Part shown: positions 1,148 to 61,027 of the stretch, in pieces
Numbering within the stretch: the first letter of the stretch is position 1
Layout of the letters: each line of letters opens with the position of its first letter
Notes under the pieces: generated by a model
Told to the model about the DNA's origin: nothing
Seen by the model: the letters and a program-made list of their open reading frames with translations, nothing else
Databases searched by the model: none
NCBI GenBank assembly: GCA_963726195.1
Contig: CAVSBO010000010.1
Coordinates: 32,001 to 96,000, forward strand
DNA from: Candidatus Thorarchaeota archaeon
GTDB taxonomy: Archaea > Asgardarchaeota > Thorarchaeia > Thorarchaeales > Thorarchaeaceae
Direction of reading: 5' to 3'
DNA length: 64,000 nucleotides
Translations under genes and position numbers: made by a program

Positions 1148-1224
1148 ACCTGATTACTCCGTTCAGGTTTTGAAAGGTCAGGGGCTTTAATACCAGTCAA
1201 TACCATAGATGTGCAGACGATAAC

Positions 1225-1275
1225 ACGAGCCTGTCTGATTGGACTGAACGAGCGATGGAGGCCATGAGAACATGA
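1225..1275 (+). pseudogene. tnpA: Collapsed IS607 tnpA remnant (TSLSDWTERAMEAMRT; ATG changed to ACG)
   Basis: Aligns with MKLSDWAERAMEAMRT of copy 2; its stop overlaps the tnpB ATG (ATGA). Confidence 0.65.
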
Positions 1276-2472
1276 AAATCATGCGGGCCTACAAAACAGA
1301 GTTGGACCCCAACAACGTTCAGCGCACAGTCCTGCTCAGACACGCCGGAACAGCAAGATTCGCATACAACTGGGGACTCGCACTGCGGAAGGAAGAGTAC
1401 GAAAGGATGGGAACATCATCGAATGCCATCGAGCTACATCGGCAGTTAAACGCATTGAAGAAGACGAAGTTCGCTTGGATGTACGAGGTTTCCAAATGCG
1501 CCCCGCAGGAAGCCCTCCGAGATCTCGACAGGGCGTACAAGAACTTCTTCGAGGGGCGGGCGGAATACCCAAAATTCAAGCGCAGAAGACTCGGCGCAGG
1601 TAGTTTCAGACTCACAGGATCCATCAGGGTGTTCTGCCACTCGGTGCAATTACCCCGACTCGGCGTGGTTCGACTCAAGGAAGAAGGCTACCTTCCGATT
1701 GGGGGAGTTCACGTCCTGTCGGCGACTGTTTCAGAAAAAGCAGGGAAATGGTTTGTGAGTCTTCAGGTGCAAGATGAGATTGAAGTACCAAATAACACCG
1801 GACCTGTGGCCGGGGTTGATCTTGGTATTTCGAAACTCGCTACAATCAGCGATGGATCCATCATCACGAATCCAAAACCTCTTTCACGCCTCGAGCGAAA
1901 GAACAAGCGAATCCAAAGGTCTCTTGTCAGGAAGGTGAAAGGCAGCAATAACCGAACCAAAACCGTGATACGACTAGCTCGGCACGAACTCAGAATTGCG
2001 AACATCCGCAAAGACGCCCAGCACAAAGCCACAACGATGATGGCGAGAACCAAGTCGGTCATCGGCGTGGAAAGCCTGAACGTGGCTGGACTGCTCAAGA
2101 ACCATCACTTGGCAAAGCAGCTCGCGGATGCAGGCATAGGAGAGTTACTCCGTCAGCTGGAATACAAGACCACATGGAATGGGGGTGCGGTCGTGGAAGC
2201 AGACCCGTTCTTTCCGTCGACAAAACGATGCTCCCAATGCGGAATAGTCAAGGATGAAATGCCGCTCTCTGAGAGAACATACAGGTGCGGGAGTTGCGGT
2301 TTCGAAGTCGACCGCGACTTGAACGCCGCCATGAATCTCAGCTTCAGTCGCCGCCAGTTGGGCGGAGACAGAAAACGCCTGCGAGAATGGAGAGGTTCAT
2401 GCCACAAGAGACAGGTGCTCCATGATGAAGCAGGAACCGAACACTGTTTGGGAGGACGTCCTGAATGGGTGA
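1272..2472 (+). CDS. tnpB: RNA-guided endonuclease TnpB (extra base near 2338 extends the ORF to 2549)
   Basis: N-terminal HTH_OrfB-like region, RuvC GVDLG / GVESL / DRDLNAA, CxxC..CxxC zinc finger. Confidence 0.93.
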
Positions 2473-2926
2473 GTTTCGGACAACGGTTGAGGCCCGAGCC
2501 TACTCACGCGCGACAGAGATTGTCGAAAGGGTCAATGCTGCAGTCCTGAACGTATTTCCCGAGGACCTTCGCAGCAGGGTGCAGATATCCAGTGCGACGA
2601 CGGAAGGGTACAATCAGATACCCATTGTTGTAATTGTTGCGACAATAGAGGACAAGGTATCGAGTGAGATTGCAGTAGATTACCTCCTGAGGGCATTATC
2701 TCCAAACGACAAAGAGATCCTCATCAACACGATAAAGCAGCGTCTGGACGAACGTTGCGTTCTTTTCATTAGACTTGATAAGCAGGCGGCATATCTTGGC
2801 CACCTGCAGTTAGCAACGGAGCCTGATGTCATTAGTATCCAAGTCCATATTCGCCAGTATCCTCGATGTAATCAGGAAAAAGCCATAACATTCATTGAAG
2901 AACGTCTAGTATCTGCGGAGGGGTGA
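2465..2926 (+). CDS. DUF54-family RNA-binding protein; N-terminus MGEFRTT derived from the IS end (original 5' exon-like fragment at 1134-1182)
   Basis: ARAYSRATE, GYNQIPI, LFIRLDKQAAYLG; conserved rpl15e-DUF54-rnp3-rnp2 context. Confidence 0.8.
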   Translation: MGEFRTTVEARAYSRATEIVERVNAAVLNVFPEDLRSRVQISSATTEGYNQIPIVVIVATIEDKVSSEIAVDYLLRALSPNDKEILINTIKQRLDERCVLFIRLDKQAAYLGHLQLATEPDVISIQVHIRQYPRCNQEKAITFIEERLVSAEG

Positions 2927-48001: not shown

Positions 48002-49531
48002 TCAGCGTTGTGATGAAATTCTGTCAGCTTTTCTCATGGCTTCTGATAGGCTCGTCACGGCGCCCGCGGGTTCAAAATGGCGGCGACGAATCTTCACAAA
48101 CGTCGGAAAGGATACGCACTCCCCCACGAAGAGAGCTTCCCCCACCTCAAGCGTCGTTACTGATTCAAGAGACGAATGATCGATACCCTCACTGGTTTTG
48201 CCGATGTGTTCAAGGTCATACGGATTCGTGCACCTGAAAATCGCTTGGTTGCTGCACTGACTAAGGACAGTTGTCGATAGCCTTACGGGCCTCTGGGAGA
48301 TTAAGCATAGAAGAGCGTAGAACTTCCTGCCCTCTCTGGCAATCGTCTCAATCTGAGCCTTTGCAAGAGTCAGCTCGTGACGACTCTCGGGGCAGAATTG
48401 ATGTGCTTCTTCAATGATGAATAGGAATGGAGGTATCTTCTCTTGCCTTCGTAAATGCAGCAGTTCGCCCGCAAGGTACGATGTCACGATTTGCTTCTTC
48501 TTGAGACTGACGAAGTCGCTGAGATCAATCAGCGTCAGCTTGCCGGGATTGACTATGCTCTTCACATCGGGCACAGCTTCCACGCCGAACAGTCCGGTTT
48601 CATCAAGATTGGTCAGCCACCCAACGATAGCATCTCTCGTGTTCTTGTTGATAGTATTATCTTCTCTTACAATCTCTGCGAGATCACCGAGACTGTATTT
48701 TCCCTGCTCGTTCTTTCGGACTTCAGATATCACGCGCCGTAGGTCACGCACTTGGATTCCGCTCATATCGGATACAAAAGAGCTCAACGCTTCTGCTGAC
48801 AGGGATGGTACAGGAATTTGAAAATAGGAAGACCGAATATGTTCGACATCGATTCGAGAACCTCGCAGCCCTAACGATTCAGCCGGCAGGTCCTTCAGAT
48901 ATGTGTATTCGCCATGAACGTCAAGAACAACTATGGCGAGTCGCCCCTGTTCCTTTGTCCGCGCGAGCATCTCCTCAAGCAGAACGGAAATGAAATAGGA
49001 CTTGCCGGCGCCGCTCATGGCAAGAACGGCAAGATGTTTTGACAGAAGCCGATCAATCGAAGGGCAGAAGCCAAGTTCGTGATGAGATAATGTGCCCAGT
49101 TTCAAACCGTTCTTTGGTTCCAGATTCAGAAATGAGGCCAGCATTCCTTCCTCTGGTCGCCTTACTAACGCGCCTGGTGAGACCGAGAAAGAAGGACGCA
49201 CCGCCTTGTCGTCAACCCAGCAGCCCAGTACACGAACCTGTGCAACAGTGTACTGCCACCTATCTGTTGGCAAAATAGAACGTAGAGACTCGCCCCTTGA
49301 CTGGTATTCTCTTACGGCTTCTGCATGCTGATAGTACCGATTGGCCCTTACAAGATTCTGAACTCGTCCAATAATCGTACCATTGTCAGTTGTTACTGAA
49401 ACGAACTCGCCGCGGCGGACAAGAACCTCGTTTGGTGCGCCCTCTACTACAAACTCGAACTCCACGACATTCGGTGTTGATTCCGTACAGATGATGGTCC
49501 CAAGCTTGGATTCAGGTGGGTATGTTGGCAT
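48002..49531 (-). CDS. herA: HerA helicase/ATPase
   Basis: HAS barrel, HLAVLAMSGAGKS, DVHGEY, EEAHQF, AREGRKF, SQRP. Confidence 0.93.
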   Translation of the reverse strand: MPTYPPESKLGTIICTESTPNVVEFEFVVEGAPNEVLVRRGEFVSVTTDNGTIIGRVQNLVRANRYYQHAEAVREYQSRGESLRSILPTDRWQYTVAQVRVLGCWVDDKAVRPSFSVSPGALVRRPEEGMLASFLNLEPKNGLKLGTLSHHELGFCPSIDRLLSKHLAVLAMSGAGKSYFISVLLEEMLARTKEQGRLAIVVLDVHGEYTYLKDLPAESLGLRGSRIDVEHIRSSYFQIPVPSLSAEALSSFVSDMSGIQVRDLRRVISEVRKNEQGKYSLGDLAEIVREDNTINKNTRDAIVGWLTNLDETGLFGVEAVPDVKSIVNPGKLTLIDLSDFVSLKKKQIVTSYLAGELLHLRRQEKIPPFLFIIEEAHQFCPESRHELTLAKAQIETIAREGRKFYALLCLISQRPVRLSTTVLSQCSNQAIFRCTNPYDLEHIGKTSEGIDHSSLESVTTLEVGEALFVGECVSFPTFVKIRRRHFEPAGAVTSLSEAMRKADRISSQR

Positions 49532-49535
49532 ATGT

Positions 49536-50723
49536 TCAGCCCCCAAATGGATTCCTAGAACGTCTCTTCTCAAGTGCCGTATAGGTCAGACCTGAAAGAG
49601 CCATGAGTCGGTCGATTATGATCTGAGATTCATTATGGCTGATTCTTGCTCTCGCGTCGGCCTCCACGATTGGTGTCGGAATGCCGTACTCCTTGTGCTG
49701 CCAAGAAATGGGCAGTATGGCGGACAAAGCCCTGTCGAGTAGCCGAACATCGTTGCTCCCATCTCCAACAAGGACTTCGATTCGGAGAGGCAAGTCATCC
49801 TGCGCGGTCTTGACGTATGTCACCCATATTCTTGAGGCCCACGAAGACAATTCATCGGGATACGCATTCGGAGTCTGTTGTATTTCTGAGGAGAAACGAA
49901 ACACAAAGGTTCTCTCGCCTTCATCCAGAAATGTATCCAGTATGTCGCAGTCTCTGGATATCTTTAGAAGCCAACGATAGTCAACACCCTGCATCATCTC
50001 AAAGACCGAAGGGTCCCTTATGATATGAGGTAGAATCTCACCCATTATGTTCACGACGCGGCTCGAACGGCTGTCTTTCACCACGCCTACCAAAGTTGTA
50101 CCCTTTTCCTTGGCTCTGTTGTACATTTGCCTGTAGAGTGCCATTACTTCTTGGAACTTGTCATTTGCCACAGAGGCGGCGGGAGGACGGTCGCGAGGAT
50201 GATAGAACAGGCTGCCGTCAATCAGGATTAGGTCTGTGGAGAATTCTTCGAGGACTGACAGGGTCACTCTCAGTTCCGCCGCAAGGCGCTCAAGGGATGC
50301 GAGCTGGTCTAGTTCCTGTCCCGAAAGACTGAGCATTACAGGTTTGATAACGGGGCTCGGAAAGGGATCTGGGAAGAAGTCAACGGTAGGGCCCTCTTTC
50401 GGCCCGAACTTGAATATCACTGCGATGGCACGTGTAAGTATCAGGTCCATTGATCTGAACTCTCTTCGTATGAGTCCTCCGTCGATGCCAGCCATCTTTA
50501 GGCCTGAGAGACTGGTCGGCTGCAGTCTCGTACAGAACTGCGCATCAACCACGTTTTCGGCTACCGAAGGGAAACGTCGCAAGTCTATGCTGCTCTTAAT
50601 CTGTCTGAGAACCTTGCCAAAGCGTTCGCGAGTGATCTCGGCCCGTTCAATTTCCTCCACTAGTGCGGACAGCATCTTGTCAAGATTCCGTTCCACTAGG
50701 TCCGTTGTCCGAAACTCACCCAT
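49536..50723 (-). CDS. nurA: NurA nuclease; N-terminus MGEFRTT derived from the IS end (original start TTG at 52019)
   Basis: GIDGG, LIDGSL, GVVKDS, YGIP.PIVEAD..ARI. Confidence 0.9.
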   Translation of the reverse strand: MGEFRTTDLVERNLDKMLSALVEEIERAEITRERFGKVLRQIKSSIDLRRFPSVAENVVDAQFCTRLQPTSLSGLKMAGIDGGLIRREFRSMDLILTRAIAVIFKFGPKEGPTVDFFPDPFPSPVIKPVMLSLSGQELDQLASLERLAAELRVTLSVLEEFSTDLILIDGSLFYHPRDRPPAASVANDKFQEVMALYRQMYNRAKEKGTTLVGVVKDSRSSRVVNIMGEILPHIIRDPSVFEMMQGVDYRWLLKISRDCDILDTFLDEGERTFVFRFSSEIQQTPNAYPDELSSWASRIWVTYVKTAQDDLPLRIEVLVGDGSNDVRLLDRALSAILPISWQHKEYGIPTPIVEADARARISHNESQIIIDRLMALSGLTYTALEKRRSRNPFGG

Positions 50724-51915
50724 TCAGGACGTCCTCCCTAACAGTGTTCGGTTCCTGCTTCATCATGGAGCACCTGCCTCTTGTGGCATGAACCTCTCCA
50801 TTCTCGCAGGCGTTTTGTGTCTCCGCCCAACTGGCGGCGACTAAAGCTAGATTCATGGCGGCGTTCAGGTCACGGTCGACTTCGAAACCGCAACGCCCGC
50901 ACCTGTGTGTTCTCTGGGAGAGCGGCATCTCATCCTTGACCGCTCCGCAGTCAGAGCATCGTCTTGTGGATGGAAAGAACGGGTCTGTTTCCACGACCGC
51001 ACCCCCATTCCACCTAGTCTTGTATTCCAGCTGACGGAGTAACTCTCCTATGCCTGCATCCGCGAGCTGCTTTGCTAAATGATGGTTCTTCAGCAGTCCA
51101 GCCACGTTCAGGCTTTCCACGCCGATGACCGACTTGGTTCTCGCCAGCATCGTTGTGGCTTTGTGCTGGGCGTCTTTGCGGATATTCGCAACTCTGAATT
51201 CGCACCGAGCCAGCCGCATCACGGTGTCGACTCGGTTGTTGCTTCCTTTCACCTTCCTAGCAAGAGACCTTTGGATTCGCTTCTTCTTTTGCTCGAAGCG
51301 CGAAAGAGGTCTTGGATTCGCGATTGCGGCTCCGTCACTGACAGTAGCAAGTTTCAAAATGCCAACATCGATTCCGGCCACAGGTCCAGTGTTATTCGGG
51401 ACTTCAATCTCCTCCTCCACCCGAAGACTCACAAACCATTTCCCTGCTTTTTCTGAAACAATCGCAGACAGGACATGAACTCCATCAATTGGAAGGTAGC
51501 CTTTTTCCTTAAGCCGAACCACACCGAGTCGGGGCAACTGCACCGAGTCGCAGAAAACCCTGATGTGTCCTGTGAGCTTGAAGCTGCCTACCCCGAGTCT
51601 TCTGCGCTTGAATCCGGGGTATTTCGCGCGCCCCTCGAAGAAGTTCTTGTACGCCCCGTCGAGATCTCGGAGGGCTTCCTGCGGAGCACACTTCGAAACC
51701 TCGTACATCCAAGGGAACTCCGTTTTGTTCAGAGCATTCAACTGCCTGTGCAGCTCGACGGCATTCGATGATGTTCCCATCTTCTCGTACTCTTCCTTCC
51801 GCCGCGCGAGTCCCCAATTGTATGCAAACCTCGCTGTTCCGGCGTGTCTGAGCAAGGCCGTGCACTGGATGTTGTTGGGGTCCAGCTCCGTTTTGTAGGC
51901 CTGCATGATTCTCAT
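50716..51915 (-). CDS. tnpB: RNA-guided endonuclease TnpB, intact
   Basis: RuvC GIDVG / GVESL / DRDLNAA; zinc finger; highly similar to copy 1. Confidence 0.95.
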   Translation of the reverse strand: MRIMQAYKTELDPNNIQCTALLRHAGTARFAYNWGLARRKEEYEKMGTSSNAVELHRQLNALNKTEFPWMYEVSKCAPQEALRDLDGAYKNFFEGRAKYPGFKRRRLGVGSFKLTGHIRVFCDSVQLPRLGVVRLKEKGYLPIDGVHVLSAIVSEKAGKWFVSLRVEEEIEVPNNTGPVAGIDVGILKLATVSDGAAIANPRPLSRFEQKKKRIQRSLARKVKGSNNRVDTVMRLARCEFRVANIRKDAQHKATTMLARTKSVIGVESLNVAGLLKNHHLAKQLADAGIGELLRQLEYKTRWNGGAVVETDPFFPSTRRCSDCGAVKDEMPLSQRTHRCGRCGFEVDRDLNAAMNLALVAASWAETQNACENGEVHATRGRCSMMKQEPNTVREDVLNG

Positions 51916-51962
51916 GTTCTCATGGCCTCCATCGCCCGTTCGGCCCAATCAGACAGCTTCAT
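51912..51962 (-). pseudogene. tnpA: Collapsed IS607 tnpA mini-ORF MKLSDWAERAMEAMRT
   Basis: MKLSDWA resembles the IS607 TnpA N-terminus, joined to a C-terminus-like ERAMEAM; ATGA overlap with tnpB. Confidence 0.7.
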
Positions 51963-52015
51963 GTTATCATGTGCCTGTATGTGGTACTGACTAGTATTAA
52001 GCCCCCTTGACTGTT

Positions 52016-53693
52016 TCAACCCTCCCTCTTGCGCTTGTATTCCAAGGCCGCCTTCAGAAAGGCTACGTATAGAGGATGTGCATTACCCGGTCTCGACTTG
52101 AACTCTGGATGATATTGGACTCCAATCCAGAACGGATGCCGCTTCAGTTCGACTGCATTTATTATCTTCCCGGTCCTATCGTAAGCTGAAATGACCATGC
52201 CTGCATCTTTCATCTTGTGCACATACCTATCAATAAGATGAAACCTATGCCTGAATCTTTCTCGCGTTTCAGTGACGCCATAGATGCTGTGTAGACGAGT
52301 CCCCTCGACAATTCTGATTTCTTGCCCCCCGAGCCTCATGGTACCGCCCTTTTCATCGGTCTGCTTCTGATCATCAAGTAAGTCTACAACTGGATAGAGA
52401 CTGTCAGGGTCAACTTCTGTCGTGTGTGCACCTTGCCAGCCCATTCGTCTTCTTGCGAAAGCTACAATTCCTAGCTGCAGCTCCATAGCAGATTCCGAGA
52501 AATGGAATACCGTCTTCAAAGGCCACCGTGGCTGCATTAATCATTCCTTCTACTCCGCGAGAACCAAACCCGGGTGTCAGAAGTATACCATCGACGTGAT
52601 TAAGGTCTTCTCGCAGACAGTCTTCACTGCATCTCACGTCGGTCTCAATCCATCTTATGTCGACTTTCGCCCCGCACTGTGCGCCAGCATGTAGAAGAGC
52701 CTCATTGATGCTCTTGTATGAGTCGCTCAAAGCAGTGTACTTTCCTGGCATGGCTACTACTACGTTGTCAGTACAACTATCGAAAGCATGGACTATCTGC
52801 TGCCACGAACTAGTTTCGGGCTCACGCGGTTCTAGCCCGAGCAACCTGACGAGGGTATTGCCCAGGCCTTGCTCTTCGAAGGACAAGGGCAATTGATAAA
52901 CTACCGGGATGTCTGGATTTGAAATGACTCGATCCTCGGGAACGTTACAGAATAATGCGATTTTTCCTCGTGCTGAGTCCTGTAGTTTCTGTTCAGCTCT
53001 GCATACTATAATGTCGGGTTGAAGACCTGATCCTTGAAGAGTGCGGACGCTGTGTTGTGTTGGCTTGGTCTTGAATTCACCAACAGCAGCAATGTAAGGT
53101 ACAAGAGTCACATGCACGAGAACAGCTCTTTCCGGTCCAACTTCGCGAATCAGCTGCCTTACCGCCTCTAGGAATGGCATCGCCTCGATGTCACCCACTG
53201 TACCTCCAACTTCCACGAGTAACACATCTGGTTCAGGCTCCTCGTTGGCAACGTCCCATATCCTGCTCTTGATGCAGTCTGTCACATGTGGGATGATCTG
53301 TACAGTGTGGCCCAAGAAACTCCCTTTTCTCTCTCCTAAGATTACCGAGACGTAGATTTGTCCCGATGTTATGTTATGAGACGGATGGATGTCCATGTCC
53401 GTGAATCGTTCATAGGTTCCGAAGTCTTGGTCGATTTCGGTAATCTTGAACTCGAAACCTTCAACAGGTTTGAATACCCAAGTCTTGTCGGTGACAAATA
53501 CCTCACCATGCTCAACAGGGTTGAGCGTCCCAGGGTCAACGTTGAGGTAAGGATCGATCTTGATTATTTGAATCGTGTACCCCCGAAACTGAAGTATCTT
53601 GGCGATTGATGCTGTGGTTACACCCTTTCCGATGCCGGACACAACACCTCCCGTTACAAATACAAATCTCGTGTTATGTTGTTTAGTGTTCAA
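52016..53693 (-). CDS. pyrG: CTP synthase (frameshift near 52485)
   Basis: [45 protein letters not shown]. Confidence 0.95.
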
Positions 53694-60595: not shown

Positions 60596-61027
60596 TCAAT
60601 CTTGGCCTGGGATTATGTGACCGTTTTCAGTGCGAGGAGTAATCCATGTTATGAACCGGTTGAACTCAGTGCTGCTGTTGAATTGCATTGAGACTTCGAT
60701 GTATCCAAGCGACGGGGTTTCTTCCGAATCGTCAATTATCCGAACACGCCCAAGGAATGCAGCCTGCTTGTCAATGCATAGACGCGTTCCGGTTCCATCC
60801 CAGTTCGATTGGAGTCTTGTCCGTGCGGCATCAATTATCCGGAGTTCTTGAATTCGCTGCCCGAGCCGTTCAAGGGATTTCGCTTCACTGAAAGTAGTTT
60901 CGAGTTCTAGGTATCCCTCATGCTGGACGATCTTGCAATTGCCATCGCCCAGTACGCTCCTTATTGCCTGCTCAACTCTTCCTTGATCCTCTGTCGGATA
61001 GGCTCTTGCCCTTGCGACCCCCTGCAT
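60596..61027 (-). CDS. UPF0201/DUF54 family protein
   Basis: YPTED..RV, I.DAAR, KQAAF.G, W..P.T..G. Confidence 0.82.
   Translation of the reverse strand: MQGVARARAYPTEDQGRVEQAIRSVLGDGNCKIVQHEGYLELETTFSEAKSLERLGQRIQELRIIDAARTRLQSNWDGTGTRLCIDKQAAFLGRVRIIDDSEETPSLGYIEVSMQFNSSTEFNRFITWITPRTENGHIIPGQD

Follow-up and report, generated by a model that had tools for sequence, protein, structure and literature searches.

Two copies of a transposable element lie within the window analysed here, a stretch of 64,000 nucleotides from a Thorarchaeota genome (GenBank contig CAVSBO010000010.1, positions 32,001 to 96,000). The element is a genuine, non-autonomous tnpB insertion sequence (IS) of the IS607 family. 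As the original prediction had noted, the last 22 nt of both copies encode MGEFRTT, with a GGAGG located 9 nt upstream of the ATG, and this frame (ATG at 50723 on the reverse strand and at 2465) continues into nurA (395 aa) or a DUF54 gene (153 aa). Such an end, comprising a Shine–Dalgarno (SD) motif and an ATG, occurs twice in the window versus 0.01 matches expected by chance. The further claim that the right end supplies SD and start to the host gene appears to stand for DUF54, and for a ZPR1 gene in an unrelated archaeon, both of which have lost their native starts, whereas the reconstruction proposed for nurA failed. The explanation we favour, and consider probable, is that translational rescue is incidental and that the survival of the host does the filtering, as opposed to a strategy for colonising the 5′ ends of genes.

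The element, its target site and its right end

The source assembly is 89% complete and its genome holds seven related copies of the element, two of them in the window; named relatives in the genome collection belong to the Thorarchaeota and other Asgard archaea. The nurA copy (Table 1) carries a tnpA stub in which the N- and C-termini of an IS607 TnpA are joined across an internal deletion, while relatives with the same ends and a full-length tnpA encode a 186-aa TnpA scoring above the NF033518 cut-off. Its TnpB contains Pfam OrfB domains, exceeds the cut-off of NF040570 and reaches 260 bits against NF038280 (IS607 TnpB), below the 350 required by that model; the catalytic motifs are retained and the ratio of non-synonymous to synonymous substitution rates (dN/dS) is 0.1–0.2. 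With a serine TnpA bearing an N-terminal helix-turn-helix domain in the full-length relatives, a GG core in a (G)GG target and tnpB located 3′ of tnpA, the element is, by its sequence features, a member of the IS607 family. No cognate full-length tnpA was found in the 89%-complete assembly. Protein-less mini-elements of 270–350 nt, consisting of the left end and the omegaRNA scaffold, are abundant in other Thorarchaeota genera (L120–L219), reaching up to ~20 per genome and being mostly intergenic. The genome yielded a single intact IS607 transposase (L401:1306-1929), which belongs to a different element and is 35% identical; the left end of that element resembles the mini-element type, and its transposase might act in trans.

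The right core GG (50703–50702) agreed with the original prediction, but the left boundary had been placed 16 nt off, at 52005–52004. The 16 nt preceding that position are common to all seven genome copies and to the relatives bearing full-length tnpA, and the left core is therefore the GG at 52021–52020. The peptide MKQSRDLVER, put forward as the restored start of nurA, is consequently element sequence. The register was set by in-gene mini-elements (L159, L166 and L127) and by the empty ZPR1 allele, where the core is the last two G of (G)GG, and the exact empty alleles at these sites show no target duplication. Across 64 left junctions the consensus is RRG-GG, with G at −1 in 60, and a preference of IS607 for (G)GG targets has been published (PMC6188088). 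The left junction at nurA reads GAGGG, one of the two published target-adjacent motifs of IS607 TnpB, the other being AGGAG (PMC11061315). These purine-rich RRGGG targets resemble the SD motifs used by this genome, which are enriched ~3-fold ahead of genes.

A predicted omegaRNA scaffold occupies the conserved last 150 nt of the element and stops sharply at the GG; it shows covariation at three stem positions and a fold z-score of −2.25, and had no match in Rfam. The tnpB ORF (open reading frame) crosses this scaffold, ending 14 nt short of the right end in the nurA copy. By analogy with characterised systems (PMC11061315; 10.1101/2023.11.20.567912), the guide would be the 16–20 nt that follow the right end, here the pyrG tail and the nurA start. 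This predicted guide matches the empty allele beside GAGGG, while the filled allele has AACGG at that position, and TnpB would thus favour retention of the element if it acts as described elsewhere (10.1101/2023.11.20.567912). With its structured right-end RNA and predicted guide in the flank, the element has the layout of a TnpB/omegaRNA (OMEGA) system, whose nuclease, with its catalytic motifs present, may cleave DNA beside a target motif.

Family junctions were gathered in two rounds (174 distinct junctions, then 36 more; family total given as 206). The last scaffold stem nearly always carries NTG at position −22, with the frame open to the junction (TTG in 90, ATG in 81 and CTG in 14 of the 206), and in some lineages this codon is an ATG behind a strong SD. 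The base at −22, the first of the candidate start codon, covaries with the base on the opposite arm (109 of 135 paired versus 64 when shuffled). The ATG lies inside a guide-RNA stem, so its presence need not reflect selection for use as a start codon. Most ATG-type elements have the tnpB stop at −14 or −22, and tnpB usually ends on or just ahead of the candidate codon. In many ATG ends, pairing with the anti-SD has an energy of −10 to −16 kcal/mol, compared with a median of −5.3 across genes; these energies assume a standard archaeal anti-SD, the 16S 3′ end not having been found in the assembly.

Junctions with DUF54, ZPR1 and nurA

Comparison with uninterrupted orthologues separated these three junctions: ZPR1 has an exact empty allele, DUF54 has lost its native start and nurA retains its own. 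Orthologues of the DUF54 gene (81–86% identity) begin MSYFAR/K/T-VEARAY behind an SD, and the 27–28 nt comprising that SD, the ATG and six codons are absent where the upstream flank meets the element. The absent stretch is flanked by a 4-nt direct repeat in two orthologues, which match the target consensus at codon 6/7; the simplest history would be insertion there and subsequent loss of the stranded 5′ fragment. Alternatively, the element may have entered at the SD, with a deletion on its right side afterwards. No other in-frame start occurs before about codon 32 and the ORF is intact in three samples. The element ATG is thus the only predicted start that would yield a whole DUF54 domain, and replacement of the N-terminus holds here on the alignment evidence. 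The dN/dS of the gene against its orthologues (0.21–0.29) equals background and cannot date function after the insertion. An overlapping start, MLVSRP, was considered as the empty allele and dropped, as the orthologues show MSYFAR and the gap. A second DUF54/PF01877 paralogue lies in the same genome (window 60686-61015), and orthologues in two related genomes (L043, L046) have one in-frame TAG, possibly reflecting readthrough or pyrrolysine.

ZPR1 provides what reads as a clean, independent N-terminal replacement: the empty allele is MQER|EFTL and the filled one, found in six samples, MGKFRTT-EFTL, with the tnpB stop directly abutting the element ATG. An 82-codon ORF in the ZPR1 element (L314:1515-1763) has an N-terminus of unrelated origin fused to the C-terminus of tnpA, which suggests that the element is nested or chimeric.

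At nurA, the element had been thought to sit after codon 5 and to replace the N-terminus, but the native GTG at 50696 is intact. Uninterrupted orthologues start at an equivalent GTG that overlaps or follows the end of pyrG, and the closest are 386 aa long, equal to 395 minus 9. The insertion separates the nurA SD from this GTG: it lies at the end of the SD, cuts into the final codons of pyrG and ends 5 nt short of the GTG, and its left end gives pyrG an in-frame TGA (52018–52016). The element ATG therefore likely adds nine residues to NurA without replacing its N-terminus. The nurA SD energy is −12.5 kcal/mol in the empty allele, −3.7 remains for the GTG after insertion, and the element ATG has −13.9. 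In addition, 19 nt separate the GTG from the tnpB stop, and coupling is almost lost at such a spacing (PMC10666635). The overlap of the ATG with the end of tnpB was borne out in this copy, where the stop lies 8 nt into the ATG frame, and not in the DUF54 copy, where tnpB (1272–2549) is frameshifted after the last RuvC motif and a 1-nt insertion carries it ~60 nt into DUF54. The reconstructed empty nurA site is 2 nt longer than that of the nearest orthologues. Both window junctions recur in contigs of three other runs (L278, L279, L300 and L301), which start from this right end and are 98–99.9% identical, and so are not assembly artefacts.

RNA-level removal of the element, by IStron-like or archaeal bulge–helix–bulge splicing, would also restore a host message, and IS607-type IStrons do this (10.1101/2023.11.20.567912). 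However, the left end is 57 nt without an intron, no Rfam intron match was obtained, and no splicing event could bring back the DUF54 start, which is missing at the DNA level, making this explanation very improbable.

Table 1 Coordinates of the element copies and adjoining features in the window
Feature	Position	Strand	Details or evidence
Element left end	51963..52019	−	57 nt; compared across genome copies and relatives
tnpA stub, 16 codons, ATGA-coupled to tnpB	51912..51962	−	Full TnpA of relative L115 matches NF033518
tnpB, 399 aa, RuvC acidic motifs and zinc finger	50716..51915	−	ORF, Pfam and motif evidence
Predicted omegaRNA scaffold and right end, core GG 50703–50702	50702..50850	−	Conservation, covariation, folding
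Element SD (50737–50733) and ATG (50723–50721), in last scaffold hairpin	50721..50737	−	SD duplex −13.9 kcal/mol
Left junction: native nurA SD GGAGG (52025–52021) ending in (G)GG target	52020..52025	−	Core GG 52021–52020
nurA, intact 386-codon native ORF from GTG 50696; 395 aa from element ATG	49536..50696	−	ORF and orthologues
herA, same operon, downstream of nurA	48002..49531	−	ORF and domain evidence
pyrG (CTP synthase), upstream; last codons cut by insertion	52016..53693	−	ORF and orthologue
Second element copy, 88% identical	1166..2486	+	tnpA-stub start mutated; SD 2451–2455, ATG 2465
DUF54/PF01877 gene lacking native SD, ATG and first six codons	2465..2926	+	Start predicted from element; orthologue comparison

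Start-proximal sites and the origin of the proposed rescue

Most of the 206 family junctions lie between genes and more than 90% are away from gene starts. As 82% of this genome's target motifs are located within called genes, this mostly intergenic distribution points to strong host filtering. The five other copies in the genome follow the same pattern, four being intergenic and one in the last codons of a gene, with none (0/5) fused in frame. The broader proposals that the family avoids damage by re-initiation and colonises the 5′ ends of operon genes are not upheld by this distribution, since only about six junctions lie at gene starts: those of DUF54, nurA, ZPR1, citramalate synthase (cimA), an Mmp4-like gene and a PIN-domain gene. 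The first three are in frame, as are cimA (probable) and the Mmp4-like gene (uncertain), and the only out-of-frame site is at codon 16 of the PIN-domain gene, a putative toxin. No match was obtained for the left flanks of the cimA and Jordarchaeia sites. The same right end is present in a bacterium, a Nitrospirota metagenome-assembled genome (L391), whose citramalate synthase has AGC where relatives have ATG, the start being GTG or the upstream element ATG. At L106 and L114, right junctions place two copies in frame within the middle of other tnpB genes, and a viral scan recovered three distant TnpBs, none with this right end.

GG targets give ~30% in frame, rather than the 1/6 originally taken as random expectation. 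Against this null of ~0.30, five of six start-proximal sites are in frame (p = 0.011), or four of five without the doubtful case (p = 0.03), in tests that are post hoc, with n = 6 and classes assigned by hand after the data had been seen. All start-proximal junctions are on ATG ends (6/81 versus 0/125 on other ends, p = 0.003), a comparison confounded with host lineage. Differences among filled alleles comprise 8 synonymous and 5 non-synonymous changes (p = 0.007 versus neutral, pooled). The tally of long frames left open beyond the junction, 19 in frame as opposed to 11 and 8, was discarded as evidence because of the many native downstream starts or mid-gene sites and the uneven distribution of GG over codon positions.

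The qualifications attached to the frame and end-type tests weigh against rescue by restart, and several further points do so too. None of the 36 later sites is start-proximal, and the cimA and Mmp4 cases have no empty allele. Taken alone, the two genes without a native start give 5 of 9 synonymous changes (p = 0.06), which is weak. The tnpB frameshift in the DUF54 copy removes the stop–start coupling, and one filled nurA allele (L279) shows an apparent frameshift from a 1-nt deletion in a TC repeat (L279:222). In addition, the SD and ATG belong to a hairpin expected to be bound by TnpB, which also cuts and processes its own mRNA (PMC10278001), so that guide-RNA use and restart should compete.

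It is also conceivable, though rather doubtful, that the in-frame fusions are coincidental, with the element ATG unused, NurA made from its own GTG, and DUF54 recently disabled and dispensable; the GTG could then rely on its weak SD or on a short or leaderless transcript left by omegaRNA processing. The intact nurA start and the second DUF54 paralogue fit such a coincidence, the chance of both window copies being in frame is ~0.09, and a structured, protein-bound right end may block ribosomes. However, the independent ZPR1 case has the same geometry, the sole out-of-frame 5′ site affects a putative toxin gene, and the reading frames of DUF54 and ZPR1 are uninterrupted in several strains, their changes being mostly synonymous or C-terminal.

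Slightly more credible, but still unlikely, is a selected strategy in which the SD-like target and TnpB motif cause frequent insertion at ribosome-binding sites and selection has built a portable SD and ATG cassette coupled to the tnpB stop. On an equally unlikely extension of this idea, the same 40 nt would be a site for the transposase, a scaffold of the guide RNA and a landing pad for ribosomes, paralleling IStrons without splicing and offsetting the preference for SD-like targets. The RRG-GG consensus with the published motifs, the strong anti-SD pairing of many ATG ends and the position of the tnpB stop are all consistent with selection. In contrast, the rarity of junctions near gene starts, the many ATG ends without an SD, the ACG found in one of the seven genome copies, and a start-codon base that tracks its pairing partner argue against it, as do TTG ends without a strong SD, which are equally common and successful.

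Under the favoured explanation of incidental rescue, a tnpA-deleted IS607 element with TnpB and a guide RNA inserts at purine-rich, SD-like (G)GG sites, and a copy landing on the SD or first codons of a needed gene would match the frame in ~30% of cases. Transcription would read through from the element into the host gene, and ribosomes ending tnpB, or binding the element SD, could restart at the element ATG (cf. PMC10666635). The host protein would then carry a few N-terminal residues of foreign origin and the insertion would survive, while other insertions at such sites would be purged. The element would replace the displaced SD and coupling at nurA and the lost start at DUF54, and rescue would be a by-product of RNA structure and survivor bias, not the family's main route of spread. 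If restart is real, it would explain how RNA-guided transposons with SD-like motifs persist without splicing in conserved operons, including those for DNA repair and those of ribosomal protein and RNase P genes, and ribosome and TnpB would conflict over one hairpin, in parallel to the splicing conflict of IStrons. MG[EK]FRTT N-termini in archaeal proteins would be transposon-derived, calling for caution among annotators.

Relation to known systems and neighbouring features

Like IS607, IS1535, ISC1926 and ISFba1 (PMC6188088, PMC11061315), the family has a serine transposase in its full-length relatives and a (G)GG target without duplication, and it shares with IS607-family TnpB elements a tnpB overlapping the right-end RNA scaffold and the SD-like motif GAGGG. 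Unlike known members, the present element has a 16-codon tnpA stub and a scaffold unmatched in Rfam. A literature search, incomplete in coverage, retrieved no paper on IS607 ends supplying an in-frame SD and start codon to a flanking gene. IStrons (CboIStron; 10.1101/2023.11.20.567912) likewise combine IS607 and TnpB, limit damage to the target gene and have a right end with two RNA functions that would be expected to conflict. With no recognisable group I intron, however, the present element is not an IStron, and the proposed rescue would be translational, confined to one frame and to sites near gene starts.

New N-termini are also given to 5′ ends by SXT/R391 in prfC and IMEVchUSA3 in dusA (10.1101/2021.06.18.448947). 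These elements, including the dusA integrative mobilisable elements, are site-specific, carry a homologous 5′ copy and a promoter, and have been tested experimentally, whereas the element described here has many unrelated targets and encodes, at different genes, a generic peptide unrelated to native N-termini. A scan of the element for sigma70-type promoters, which does not cover archaeal promoters, gave no match. Being neither site-specific nor equipped with a homologous 5′ end or a detected promoter, it does not appear to be a 5′-end-replacing integrative element.

IS900 is an example of an IS element whose insertion point falls between a host SD and a start codon, as at nurA. Elements of this kind belong to the IS110 family and exploit the host's signal to express a gene of their own; they are not known to give one back. 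Such a placement is described in Doran 1997 and Inglis 2003 (both cited by PMC2942039). Overlapping or abutting stops and starts, seen here between the tnpA stub and tnpB (−4) and between tnpB and the element ATG (−8 or 0), also characterise archaeal termination–reinitiation coupling, which has been described for native gene pairs rather than transposon–host junctions (PMC6728339, PMC10666635).

Relative to its orthologue, pyrG has a +1 frameshift near 52480 (window 52410-52537) that is probably an assembly indel, and indels of one base in this assembly are accordingly not to be relied upon. Elsewhere in the window, an Rfam eL15-Euryarchaeota leader lies upstream of rpl15e (484-529) in this Asgard archaeon.

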